A DNA stretch of 64,000 bases from Escherichia coli O127:H6 str. E2348/69 (GTDB taxonomy: Bacteria > Pseudomonadota > Gammaproteobacteria > Enterobacterales > Enterobacteriaceae): assembly GCF_000026545.1 (NCBI RefSeq), contig NC_011601.1; one strand, given 5' to 3'. Made by a program: the position numbers. This document shows positions 33,901 to 39,900 of the stretch, piece by piece. Numbering within the stretch: position 1 is the first letter of the stretch; every line of letters starts with the position of its first letter.

Positions 33901-36900
33901 CTGGGCGGTTACAGCTGGCTCAGCATTGATCAGTGGTTGCGTTGCTGGCGTCGCCTGCGTCATGAAAGAGGGGAACGCACTCATCCCCAGAGCCACTGCA
34001 CAAATCCAGAATATTTTTCTTTTCATCGCGTTATCATCATTGTTGAGCCAAAGCCTGATCCGATGGTTGTGCCGTTTCGCTCCGCTCCGGGCGGCGCGGA
34101 ATAAACGATACAACCCAGGAAACCAGAGAAGTCAGCACACGGAATATGCCCTTCACCGAAGAAGGCGCAAATTCCGCCAGATGGCGGTAGCCACGGAAGC
34201 CGAGCTTCAGAATATCCAGCAGACTTTCCAGCGGCTTATCTTCCGGGTAGCTGTCCTGCCAGAGCGCCCATGTATCCGCACGGGCAAACGTACACTGCAC
34301 AAAATCGATATGTTGCTGGGTAGTGAGCGGCATTAATTTCAGCCCAACTTCATTACCCATCACGCGGGCCACCTGAGCCGGGAAGACGTATTCCTGCTGA
34401 CCGCGTTTAAGCAACAGATTCACTTTCTGCCCTTCCAGAATCTGCGCCTGACCGTTGATCTTGATCCCCAAACCACCGTCGGAGAAATCCTGAACGGTAC
34501 ACGAGAAGAGGTGACCATCTTCGCGGGCAATTGCTGCGGGCATCGTCATCTCCACGCGGTGCGATCGGCGTACCTGTTTGCTTTCTACCGATACTGCGAC
34601 TGCGCCGCCGAGAATAATCAGGTTGTAGAATACCCACACCATACTGACGACCACGGTGAGCATCTCGGTTGGCGGACCATAGAAGTAGCGCCAGATCCCA
34701 ACCGCTACGCCCACCAGGTTGAGCAGAACAAGGAAGATGTAGGGCCGCGAGATCACCCAGTCGACGTACTCTTCTTCCACCAGTCCACCTTTGGCGGTGA
34801 CGTTAAATTTGCCTTTGTGCGGGTTAATCAGCGCCACCAGCGTCGGTGGTGCGATATACCACGCCAGCACCGTTTCGTAGATTTCACTCCAGAAAGAGTG
34901 GCGATATTTGCCCTGGATCTTCGAGTTAGTCAGGCTGGCATGGATCATATGCGGTAGCACGAACAGGGCGATCATCAACGCTGGCGCGTAGATGATGTAG
35001 GCATGAAACAGCAGGAACGCCAGCGGCGCAGTCAGGAAGATCAGTCGTGGAATGCCCGACAAGAAGTGGAACATGGCGTTGACATAGCACAGCCGCTGAG
35101 CAAACTTCAGCCCTTTACCGGTGAGCGGGTTATCGAGACGGAAGATTTGCACCATCCCGCGCGCCCAGCGAATACGCTGACCGATATGCGCCGAGAGACT
35201 TTCGGTCGCCAGCCCCGCTGCCTGCGGAATACGCATATACGCGGAGGTGTAGCCACGACGGTGCAGACGCAGAGAAGTGTGCGCATCTTCGGTTACCGTT
35301 TCGACAGCAATACCGCCAATCTCATCCAGCGGCTTACGGCGAATCACCGCACATGAGCCGCAGAAGAAAGTGGCATCCCACATATCATTGCCGTCCTGCA
35401 CCAGACCATAGAACAGCGTGCCTTCGTTCGGCGTTTTACGAAAACGCCCCAGGTTGCGTTCAAACGGATCCGGCGAGAAGAAGTGGTGCGGCGTCTGCAT
35501 CATCGCCAGCTGTTTCTCTTTCAGGAACCAGCCCATGGTCATTTGCAGTAACGATCGCGTTGGTACGTGGTCGCAGTCGAATATCGACACGAACTCGCCT
35601 TTGGCATATTTCAGCGCATTGTTGATGTTGCCCGCTTTCGCATGTTCATGAGTGGTACGGGCGATATATTTCACCCCCACGTTTTGCGCAAACTGGCGAA
35701 ACTCTTCCCTGCCGCCGTCATCGAGGATCCAGATGTTCAGCTTGTCTTTCGGCCAGTCGATACCCAGCGAAGCGTAAATGGTATTTTTCACCACGTTGAG
35801 ATCTTCGTTGTAAGTCGGGACAAAGATATCCACCGACGGCCACAGCGACATATCTTTCGGCAATGGCACCGGCTGACGATTCAGAGGCCATACGACCTGG
35901 AAATAGCCGAGCACCAGCACAATCCACGCGTACGTTTCGGCGAACAGCAGAATAAGCCCGCACACCAGGCTGACCGGATCGTCCCAGTTTAACGTCGAGG
36001 TGTAACGCCACCAGATATAACGGCAAGAAACGGTCAGCGACAGCACAATCAGCATCAGCGCCGAGAAGCGCCCCGGCATCCGCCGTACGATCAGCGCTAC
36101 CCCCCACAGCAGCATCAGGAAGATAAACTGCGCTAGCGGGTTAAACGGCTGAGTAACGCAGATTAACGCCAGAATCAGCGAGAAGGTGACGATGATACCA
36201 AGGATCAACCGCCGCGCCCCGGCACTCAAATGACCGAGCTCTTTTTTCTCATCAAGATGCTGTGTTTTATGGCTAACGCGCTCAGGCAGCTCGTTCATCC
36301 ATTGATGGTAACGTCCACGAATATTTTGTAGACCTGAAAATGCTCGCCTGCGCGGTTTCGGCGTTTCTTTGCGCGATGCACCGATCAGTAACCAGCATGT
36401 TTGAATAAGATAACGGACCGGGTCCAGCGGACGCGGACGCGAGGCGTTGATATGCGGATACAGGTTTTTATGTTCTGCGCGAATACGCTGCCAGTGCGGG
36501 TGCTCCAGCGGAATAAAAATCCAGGCCAGGATCATCCAGAAACAGCCGAGCGTCGCGCTGAAAGCCGACGCGCCGTGACGACGATAATCGCGATAACGCC
36601 CAATAAGCCGTGCGTTGACCGGCGGGATAAGCAACCACCGGGTCAGGATACTCATGATGCACTCCCGACTGGCGTTTTCAGCCCGGAATAGTTTAACAGG
36701 CACCAGTTAGCCAGCGTCAGTATTTCTTCAGCCGCCAGCGCATCACTGCGAAATTCACCGACTGGTTGCTTAGCTGCCAGACATTCAGCCATCGCTTCAT
36801 CACGATGAATGAGCATCGGCAGCAATCGGCGCTGGCTTTGCAACCAAAGCTGGTAAATATCGTCCTGAACCTGGCTGCCAATACGGAAGTCATTAATCAA

Positions 36901-39900
36901 AATATGTGCACCATCCGGCAGCGCTTGCTGATGCAGTCGGATATGGCAGTTGGCATCCACATTGACGATTGCCAGCGAGTGATCGCACAAACTCAGCAGC
37001 TGGTGGGTTATCTGCGAGGCATCACGCGGTAAGTCAATTAAAATCCACTGGTAACGCCCGCTGGCTTTTAGTTGCTGTAAGCCGGTGCAAATATCGCTCA
37101 GCCGGGTTTGCCAGTGCTGTGGATTTTCTTGTTCTTCAATGGATAACTGACCAAAAGGCAGCAAATCGAGCTGCGAGGTATAGCGCAACCCGGCGTCACG
37201 CCAGTCCTGGCCATCCAGCATAGCTCTGGCCCAACCCTGACGGTGGGTAAAATCAACGTTAAATGACAGGCGCAACAAGTTGTCCGGGCAGGCATCGACC
37301 ACCAGGACATTTTCTCCCAACATTTGTAATGACCAGGCTAATGCGGCGGTGATGGTTGTTGTCCCCACGCCTCCCCGAACCCCCTGCAATCCCAGTACGG
37401 CCATTCACCAATCCCCTACTTTTGTTGCGCAAACTCTGCCAGCAACGGCCAGCGTTTTAATGCCGCGGCCAACTGTTCGCGTTGGGAAATATCGGCATAA
37501 TCAATATCAGGCAGTGAAAATGCCTGCTTTAACGCCAAAATATCATTCTGGAAGATATAGCCTATCGCGGGATCAGGCAGAGTATCTGGTTCATTGTTAT
37601 TCATTTTTCTTGATCCCTATGAAATAACCGTACCGTTCATGAGACAATTCTAACTGTGAGCATTTCGTCGGTTTATTGTTTACGGCGAGACGGGAATGTG
37701 CTCACTTTTTGACTTTCCGTTACGCAACAGAAAAAGTTAAAAACGAAAAGACTAAAATCACATGTCTTGTGACCTGCTAAATTGATTCACATGCTAAATC
37801 TGATAAGTTTTAATTTCAATGGTAGGTTTATTTCTTAGCTTTCGCTAGTAAACTGATAATCAGACAAAATGTTGACATGAGGGACATTGTGGACCCTGTA
37901 TTCTCTATCGGTATCTCATCATTATGGGATGAGCTGCGACATATGCCAGCAGGCGGCGTCTGGTGGTTTAACGTCGATCGCCATGAAGATGCTATCAGTC
38001 TGGCGAATCAAACAATTGCATCCCAGGCTGAAACCGCACACGTCGCGGTCATTAGCATGGACAGCGATCCAGCGAAAATCTTTCAATTAGATGATTCTCA
38101 AGGGCCGGGAAAAATAACATTATTTTCAATGCTAAATCATGAAAAAGGTCTATACTATTTGGCCCGTGATTTGCAGTGTTCTATTGATCCCCATAATTAC
38201 CTTTTTATTCTTGTTTGCGCAAATAACGCATGGCAAAACATTCCTGCCGAGCGGCTTCGCTCATGGTTGGATAAAATGAATAAATGGAGCAGGCTAAACC
38301 ATTGTTCGCTTTTGGTAATTAATTCCGGAAATAATAACGATAAACAATTTTCATTGTTACTTGAGGAATACCGTTCACTTTTTGGTCTTGCCAGTTTGCG
38401 TTTTCAGGGCGGCCAACATTTGCTGGATATTGCTTTCTGGTGCAACGAAAAAGGGGTCAGCGCCCGTCAGCAGCTTAGCGTTCAGCAACAAAATGGTTGC
38501 TGGACATTAGTTCAACACCAAGAGGCGGAAATCCAACCACGCAGCGACGAAAAACGCATTCTGAGTAATGTTGCTGTACTGGAAGGTGCGCCGCCGCTAT
38601 CGGAACACTGGCAACTGTTCAACAATAACGAAGTCCTGTTCAATGAAGCCCGTACCGCTCAGGCGGCGACGGTGGTCTTTTCTTTACAGCAAAATGCGCA
38701 AATCGAGCCACTGGCCCGCAGCATTCATACTCTGCGTCGCCAGCGCGGTAGTGCGATGAAAATCCTCGTACGGGAAAATACCGCCAGCCTGCGCGCCACC
38801 GATGAACGTTTATTATTGGCCTGCGGTGCAAATATGGTTATCCCGTGGAATGCGCCACTCTCCCGCTGTCTGACGATGATCGAAAGCGTGCAAGGGCAGA
38901 AGTTTAGTCGCTATGTGCCGGAAGATATAACTACCTTGCTGTCAATGACCCAGCCGCTCAAACTGCGTGGTTTCCAGAAGTGGGATGTGTTCTGTAATGC
39001 CGTCAACAACATGATGAATAACCCTCTATTACCTGCCCACGGTAAAGGCGTTCTGGTTGCCCTACGTCCGGTACCGGGTATCCGCGTTGAGCAAGCCCTG
39101 ACGCTATGTCGCCCTAACCGTACCGGCGATATCATGACCATTGGCGGTAATCGGCTGGTGCTGTTTCTCTCATTCTGTCGGATTAACGATCTGGATACCG
39201 CGTTGAATCATATTTTCCCATTGCCTACTGGCGACATTTTCTCAAACCGAATGGTCTGGTTTGAAGATGATCAAATCAGTGCCGAGCTGGTGCAGATGCG
39301 CCTGCTTGCCCCAGAACAATGGGGCATGCCGCTGCCTTTAGCGCAAAGTTCTAAACCGGTCATCAATGCCGAGCACGATGGTCGCCACTGGCGACGAATA
39401 CCAGAACCAATGCGACTGTTAGATGATGCTGTGGAGCGCTCATCATGATGACCATCAGCGATATCATTGAAATTATTGTCGTTTGCGCACTGATATTTTT
39501 CCCGCTGGGCTATCTGGCGCGGCACTCTTTGCGACGCATTCGCGACACCTTACGTTTGTTCTTTGCTAAACCTCGTTATGTTAAACCGGCCGGGACGTTA
39601 CGCCGCACGGAAAAAGCCAGGGCAACCCAAAAATGACTCAATTTACGCAAAATACCGCCATGCCTTCTTCCCTCTGGCAATACTGGCGCGGCCTTTCCGG
39701 CTGGAACTTCTATTTTCTGGTTAAGTTCGGCCTGTTGTGGGCGGGATATCTTAACTTCCATCCGCTCCTCAATTTGGTGTTTGCCGCGTTTCTACTGATG
39801 CCCATTCCGCACTATAGCCTGCATCGCTTGCGCCACTGGATTGCCCTGCCGATCGGCTTTGCTTTGTTCTGGCATGACACCTGGTTGCCTGGCCCGGAAA

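Follow-up and report, generated by a model that had tools for sequence, protein, structure and literature searches.

The window, a 64,000-nt stretch of DNA from Escherichia coli, almost certainly carries bcsQ in its wild-type form, as part of a complete cellulose secretion locus of Type II, bcsRQABZC together with the divergent bcsEFG, of EPEC O127:H6 strain E2348/69 or a clone identical to it. Over a segment of 20 kb that spans the bcs locus, and likewise over bcsQ itself, the sequence matches E2348/69 with 100% identity, and three independent O127:H6 assemblies show no difference in these 20 kb. All nine genes (9/9) of an E. coli-like Type II Bcs system with a pEtN module, bcsRQABZC and the divergent bcsEFG, were found to be uninterrupted. 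The difference between an intact bcsQ and the lesion present in K-12 has been known since 2013, and is not new.

The bcsQ gene and its product

The bcsQ frame starts with ATG, ends with TGA and encodes a protein of 250 aa beginning with MAVLGLQGVRGG. The gene is located between bcsR and bcsA in the bcsRQABZC operon, with bcsR 11 nt upstream. The features of bcsQ are:

36652..37404, minus strand: bcsQ, intact, 250 aa, SIMIBI/MinD-like ATP-binding cellulose secretion subunit (ORF, NF007460 and PDB matches)
37387..37389, minus strand: bcsQ codon 6, TTG (Leu), read as CAA on the plus strand; nucleotide 17 of the gene is window position 37388
36652..36655, minus strand: ATGA overlap of 4 nt between the bcsQ stop and the bcsA start, junction GCATCATGAGTATCC

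The NCBIfam equivalog NF007460 matches the product over its entire length (residues 1-250 of 250), scoring 540.3 bits where the cut-off is 399 (E=5.5e-163), and TIGR03371 (cellulose biosynthesis protein BcsQ) scores 295.8 against a cut-off of 157.85. The BcsQ chains of PDB entries 6YBU and 6YAR align with E~2e-167 and four amino acid differences. As the NF007460 and PDB matches show, the open reading frame is a real gene rather than a chance frame.

Among the closest known systems is that of E. coli 1094, whose BcsQ is represented by PDB entries 6YAR, 6YAY, 6YB3, 6YB5 and 6YBU and by cryo-EM entries 9FNN, 9FP0 and 9FP2. It is likewise 250 aa long, aligns end to end, has the GVRGGVGTTT form of the deviant P-loop in common with the window protein, along with N152, R156 and N171 of the ATP sandwich (PMC7840130), and is encoded in the same operon context. 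The window protein has T107, D172, F218 and A249 where the 1094 protein has S, N, Y and K, and none of these four substitutions (0/4) touches a residue to which PMC7840130 assigns a function. Furthermore, all residues on a list compiled from PMC7840130 and PMC5727187 (R10, G14, T15, T16, T17, C39, D41, D150, N152, R156 and N171) are at their expected positions. Binding of ATP, formation of BcsR2Q2 and a requirement for cellulose secretion have been described for the 1094 protein (PMC7840130), and from its 98% identity we infer the same properties for BcsQ of the window.

BcsQ shares its fold class with the SIMIBI NTPases MinD and ParA, but the similarity is weak (MinD, PDB 4V02, E=3.5e-6) and the NCBIfam MinD/ParA profiles score far below their cut-offs. 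The Walker A lysines of MinD/ParA are replaced by R10 and T15 in BcsQ, and the catalytic Asp by C39 (PMC7840130). BcsQ serves cellulose secretion as a dedicated subunit and does not act in partition or division.

Published structures suggest how the protein would act. BcsQ belongs to the SIMIBI proteins, resembles MinD/ParA and has a Walker A loop of deviant type. It would bind ATP as a sandwich dimer and pair with BcsR into BcsR2Q2, and together with BcsE and BcsF it would surround the BcsA synthase at its cytosolic domains. According to the literature the secretion machinery would need BcsQ both to assemble and to be active. The full 250-aa protein should be made here because codon 6 is TTG, and ribosomes would then translate as far as the ATGA overlap, so that bcsA and the genes downstream would be expressed normally. 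The overlap itself suggests translational coupling between bcsQ and bcsA. Such coupling is a plausible route to polarity of the K-12 nonsense mutation, and a possible polar effect of that mutation is mentioned in PMC5944007.

Codon 6 in K-12 and across E. coli

The sequence was aligned with bcsQ of MG1655 (NC_000913.3, 3695233..3695985, b3534, annotated as a pseudogene), which is the same gene with the same length and position. At nucleotide 17 the window has T where MG1655 has A, giving TTG versus TAG, and translation of the MG1655 gene reads MAVLG*QG..., with the stop at codon 6. The 17T>A allele of the K-12 pseudogene, with TAG as its sixth codon, was not found in bcsQ of the window, which has TTG. 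The two genes differ by 20 nt in all; of the 19 differences besides codon 6, two are non-synonymous (S107T and Y218F). The preliminary description had claimed a frame open for 250 aa with TTG at codon 6 and a premature stop at that codon in K-12, and had proposed an alignment of codons 1-10 against K-12 bcsQ as a check. The frame and the sequence at 37387-37389 bear out the first claim, and the MG1655 alignment and translation, in agreement with the published 17T>A change, confirm the second.

In K-12 this single T-to-A change, which converts TTG to TAG, abolishes cellulose production. Repair of the codon in strain AR3110 restores cellulose (PMC5944007; PMC7397504). AR3110 is a K-12 W3110 derivative in which codon 6 was changed from TAG to TTG (PMC7397504), and after the repair it carries the same codon as the window (PMC7397504). 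The TTG could reflect a mistake in sequencing or assembly, or the window could derive from an engineered, AR3110-like K-12 strain, but we consider either explanation extremely improbable. An error is contradicted by the identity of the three O127:H6 assemblies and by the recurrence of the same allele: a 56-mer with TTG at codon 6 occurs exactly in 4862 of 5246 complete E. coli genomes, a count that covers the codon-6 region only and does not equal the number of wholly intact bcsQ genes, because bcsQ of O157:H7 has TTG at codon 6 and yet a stop at codon 66. A repaired K-12 origin would leave bcsQ one nucleotide away from K-12, not 20, and the locus has non-K-12 features, namely IS200C, a second ldr/rdlD module and a hipA-like module. 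The 20 nt differences in bcsQ and the 100% identity to E2348/69 rule out an AR3110-like window.

The TAG version of the 56-mer is found exactly in 348 of 5242 genomes; among the best 60 of these 348 carriers, nearly all bear names of laboratory strains or K-12 derivatives and a few names are uninformative. Independent losses of bcsQ in other lineages affect the same gene at the same locus by different lesions. O157:H7 F7386 has the stop at codon 66 and ST95 clades carry Q178* (PMC10881479), neither of which is present in the window. In addition, a BcsQ nonsense mutation, which may or may not be the L6* allele of K-12, is common to ST167, ST617 and ST744, for which the tables state 'truncated.bcsQ' with no position (PMC10881479). 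The intact allele is the norm of the species and the broken K-12 copy the exception, and presenting the intact gene as notable is therefore unwarranted. These findings support the reading of a wild-type bcsQ, and no observation contradicts it.

The remaining bcs genes and cellulose production

The other genes of the locus and the adjoining phosphodiesterase gene are:

37416..37604, minus strand: bcsR (yhjR), 62 aa, first gene of bcsRQABZC (NF040717, 75.8 bits, cut-off 46)
34037..36655, minus strand: bcsA (NF008558, 1790 bits, residues 1-872 of 872)
31687..34026, minus strand: bcsB, 779 aa (NF008325, 1386 bits, cut-off 922)
30574..31680, minus strand: bcsZ, 368 aa, periplasmic GH8 endoglucanase (above its NCBIfam cut-off)
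27119..30592, minus strand: bcsC, 1157 aa, TPR domain and outer-membrane channel (NF008520, 2197 bits, full length)
25049..27037, minus strand: pdeK/hmsP, 662 aa, c-di-GMP phosphodiesterase adjoining the operon (NF008807, 782 bits, cut-off 733)
37605..37876, no strand: divergent bcsR/bcsE intergenic (promoter) region, 272 nt, equal in length to that of K-12 with 7 substitutions
37877..39448, plus strand: bcsE, 523 aa, c-di-GMP-binding GIL-domain regulator (NF011619, 1182 bits, cut-off 929)
39445..39636, plus strand: bcsF, 63 aa (TIGR03493, 114.7 bits, cut-off 56)
39633..41312, plus strand: bcsG, 559 aa, phosphoethanolamine transferase (TIGR03368, 817 bits, cut-off 410)

The lengths of bcsR, A, B, Z, C, E, F and G and of pdeK equal those of K-12, no internal stop is present in any of the nine bcs genes or pdeK, and the intergenic region between bcsR and bcsE has neither indel nor insertion relative to K-12. 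All nine Bcs proteins and PdeK score above their own NCBIfam cut-offs, and most of the Bcs matches span approximately the whole profile. The earlier statement that the other bcs genes in the window are full length holds on each of these three counts: K-12 lengths, absence of stops and family cut-offs.

Every catalytic and c-di-GMP-binding motif checked in BcsA, BcsE and BcsG was found. BcsA, which differs from the K-12 protein by five amino acids, contains DDG312, DCDH360, FFCGS430, TED455, QRIRW493, R696xxxR and DxSxxG. BcsZ has E55 and D243, which we take to be its catalytic residues, and BcsG has C243, E442 and H443, presumably metal ligands. The BcsG nucleophile S278 (PMC11470070) and the BcsE I-site R415-T-G-D, a motif cited in PMC5727187, were found as well. 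A functional link between pdeK and cellulose synthase has been described (PMC7397504). Modification of cellulose with pEtN by BcsG in E2348/69 is predicted from the sequence.

The phenotype of E2348/69 has been reported. On YESCA agar at 25 °C the wild type forms rdar colonies and fluoresces with calcofluor, a ΔcsgA mutant is pdar (cellulose only) and a ΔcsgA ΔbcsA mutant is smooth and white; cellulose of this strain is bcsA-dependent (PMC8881592). Cellulose was undetected under the other conditions tested, including those supporting production of SslE (PMC8881592). The preliminary prediction of a functional cellulose apparatus agrees with the rdar, pdar and calcofluor phenotypes, with production being conditional.

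It might nevertheless be argued that the genes are intact and yet yield an apparatus that is in effect inactive or strongly impaired, owing to missense changes (R54H and F369L in BcsA, and others in BcsE, BcsB and BcsG) or to missing regulatory input. The F369L change lies six residues past DCDH and is private to O127:H6; strains BL21 and H10407 are calcofluor-negative despite intact bcs reading frames (PMC5944007), and in the LB conditions tested the glucose released by cellulase from E2348/69 was not above that from the ΔcsgA ΔbcsA mutant (PMC8881592). The phenotypes on YESCA agar and the intact catalytic motifs speak against such a defect, which we judge very unlikely, and in favour of a complete, wild-type locus. 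Intact genes do not guarantee cellulose production. Production depends on c-di-GMP and CsgD regulators (e.g. DgcC and CsgD), all encoded outside the window, as is the regulator gene rpoS.

Features of the O127:H6 lineage and significance

An exact 57-mer with the BcsA F369L change occurs in 3 of 5227 genomes. R54H is also private to the lineage and is located in the N-terminal domain of BcsA that recruits BcsG, and a copy of IS200C lies about 11 nt past the bcsG stop codon. The two private BcsA changes and the IS200C insertion after bcsG could conceivably retune cellulose output or pEtN modification quantitatively in E2348/69, although we regard this as very improbable. If true, such retuning would help to explain the conditional cellulose production of the strain.

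Beyond correct annotation the significance of these findings is slight. The strain has the genes of the usual machinery for cellulose and pEtN-cellulose, with no part missing. In the genetics of the biofilm matrix it is K-12 that is the atypical reference. For work on EPEC biofilms the practical point is that, since the bcs locus is intact in E2348/69, a lack of cellulose in a particular condition should be put down to regulation rather than gene decay.

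The bcsQ frame and its sixth codon

In the window, bcsQ (36652..37404, - strand) appears in the ORF list as a 250-aa frame with an ATG start and the N-terminus MAVLGLQGVRGGVGTTT, and the raw sequence reads CAA on the + strand at 37387-37389, i.e. TTG on the coding strand, making codon 6 of bcsQ Leu. Both agree with the open frame proposed in the preliminary description. The premature stop that it ascribed to K-12 was found as well: the annotation of MG1655 (NC_000913.3) lists bcsQ (b3534, 3695233..3695985) as a pseudogene, the pairwise alignment has T in the window vs A in K-12 at nucleotide 17, and the K-12 frame is translated as MAVLG*QG..., so that K-12 does not carry TTG at codon 6. 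This reading of bcsQ restates a K-12 fact published in 2013 and is already known. Three codons 3' of the TAG, codon 9 is GTG in K-12 vs GTT (positions 15961-15986, bcsQ codons 1-9, of the fetched MG1655 stretch L001). The GTG could in principle serve as a reinitiation codon; reinitiation there would lose the first beta-strand, and an active protein is unlikely.

BcsQ belongs to the SIMIBI (MinD-like) proteins, has a deviant Walker A loop and forms ATP-bound sandwich dimers and, with BcsR, a BcsR2Q2 complex; it binds BcsE as well as two modules of BcsA, GT and PilZ, and it is essential for cellulose secretion (PMC7840130, PMC5727187, PMC11470070). The 17T>A change in K-12 bcsQ abolishes cellulose production, and reversal of TAG to TTG in AR3110, a K-12 W3110 derivative, brings it back; the K-12 defect may reflect loss of BcsQ, downstream polarity, or both (PMC5944007, PMC7397504). 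The bcsA start overlaps the bcsQ stop (ATGA at 36652-36655), which points to translational coupling of the two genes. A stop at codon 6 would then abolish the coupling to bcsA, whereas the allele in the window would give full-length BcsQ and keep it.

Integrity and surroundings of the bcs locus

BcsQ scored 540 bits against the NCBIfam equivalog NF007460 (cut-off 399), covering 1-250 of 250 residues. Against the solved structures of BcsQ from E. coli 1094, 6YBU and 6YAR among them, it gave E~2e-167 and showed four substitutions. Using gene coordinates carried to the window by offset from the E2348/69 annotation, we found exactly the K-12 length, and zero internal stops, for each of the nine bcs genes and the adjoining pdeK/hmsP; relative to K-12, 1-15 residues are changed in each product. 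Each protein surpasses its curated family cut-off, most matches spanning essentially the whole profile. The remaining bcs genes are accordingly full length, as had been stated in the preliminary description. Between bcsR and bcsE, the divergent promoter region has the K-12 length of 272 nt and contains seven substitutions but no insertion. Functional residues and motifs are listed below; we take BcsG C243, E442 and H443 to be metal ligands, and BcsZ E55 and D243 presumably are catalytic.

Residues and motifs present in the Bcs proteins
BcsQ: R10, G14, T15-T17, C39, D41, D150, N152, R156, N171 (named in PMC7840130, PMC5727187)
BcsA: DDG312, DCDH360, FFCGS430, TED455, QRIRW493, R696xxxR with DxSxxG
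BcsE: R415TGD
BcsG: S278 (PMC11470070), C243, E442, H443
BcsZ: E55, D243

Two substitutions were observed in BcsA, neither of which was found in the compared K-12, SE15 and O157:H7: R54H (36494-36496), in the N-terminal BcsG-recruiting domain, and F369L (TTC to TTA; 35549-35551, - strand), six residues past the DCDH catalytic motif. In a 57-mer around codon 369, SE15 and the window differ at that codon alone (TTC vs TTA), and the window's version is exact in 3/5227 complete E. coli genomes, each of them O127:H6. According to the literature, the strain carrying both substitutions still produces cellulose.

An IS200C copy of ~705 nt (~41324-42028) is inserted some 11 nt past the bcsG stop, in the short convergent bcsG/ldrD spacer that measures 86 nt in K-12. 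Among 5,426 genomes, a match across the insertion was obtained in O127:H6 assemblies only. The element could affect termination of bcsEFG or ldrD. It is followed by two tandem modules of Ldr toxin and RdlD antisense RNA (42029-42813), whereas K-12 has one module at this locus and SE15 has three annotated ldr toxin genes, so the copy number differs by lineage.

Features downstream of bcsG
41427-41885, - strand: IS200C tnpA
41895-42018, - strand: STnc490 RNA, IS200C-associated (Rfam)
42109-42216 and 42592-42699, - strand: ldr
42265-42330 and 42748-42813, + strand: rdlD

Further along, a three-gene hipBA-like module (~44463-46089, - strand) is located between yhjV and dppF, comprising an HTH protein, a protein with a HipA N-terminal domain and a HipA-family kinase, and resembling a split-HipA toxin-antitoxin system. 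K-12 and O157:H7 are without it at this spot, whereas in SE15 it is at least partly there, a HipA-family gene being annotated at the margin of the sequence retrieved. The E2348/69 annotation alone places a long polar fimbriae operon, lpfABCDE, between yhjX and eptB, at about 54600-63000 of the window by approximate conversion of NZ_CP059840.2 214056-222023; it also lists yhjY in this region as a frameshifted autotransporter-domain pseudogene.

Cellulose production in E2348/69

The E2348/69 mutants reportedly come from Saldaña et al. 2009. Grown at 25 °C on YESCA agar, wild-type E2348/69 formed red, dry, rough colonies; the ΔcsgA mutant was pink, dry and rough, i.e. cellulose only, and the ΔcsgA ΔbcsA mutant white and smooth (PMC8881592). 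Wild-type E2348/69 grown under these conditions was the only one of the strains tested with noticeable calcofluor fluorescence (PMC8881592). Colony types and staining support the prediction of a functional cellulose apparatus. That the bcs locus might be intact yet inactive is disfavoured, as this published phenotype speaks against it; a quantitative attenuation of the intact locus is conceivable. Cellulose was not found under conditions supporting SslE production (PMC8881592), which indicates that its production is conditional; the regulators DgcC and CsgD are located outside the window. Phosphoethanolamine modification by BcsG in E2348/69 is predicted from sequence integrity.

Lineage and distribution of bcsQ alleles

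The bcsQ of the window is 100% identical to that of E2348/69. A 20-kb query from pdeK to yhjV was 100% identical, in one piece, in E2348/69 and two other O127:H6 assemblies, while coverage among the other matches listed was <=98%, mostly 96%. The window therefore belongs to this enteropathogenic lineage, presumably of phylogroup B2. A sequencing error at codon 6 is ruled out by the 20-kb identity across O127:H6 assemblies, and an engineered K-12 by that identity together with the bcsQ alignment and the amino-acid differences from K-12.

Allele frequencies were estimated with a 56-nt probe (-30 to +26 of bcsQ, one version per allele), which reports on codon 6 only. The TTG version was exact in 4862/5246 complete E. 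coli genomes and the K-12 TAG version in 348/5242. Among the TAG matches listed (60 of the 348), nearly all were by name K-12 laboratory strains or derivatives, including MG1655, DH5alpha, C600, J53 and DH1, and a few had uninformative names. An uninterrupted codon 6 is thus the species norm, and the TTG in the window is the ordinary E. coli allele.

In O157:H7 F7386 (bcsQ at 12001-12753 of the fetched stretch L006) TTG is kept at codon 6 and a separate stop is present at codon 66, the gene being annotated as a pseudogene, which shows that E. coli lineages have inactivated bcsQ on more than one occasion. This is in line with the convergent loss described in PMC10881479, where bcs loss-of-function mutations were found in strains of 74/76 common STs examined. 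An uninterrupted nine-gene bcs locus, as a whole, is common in E. coli, not universal.
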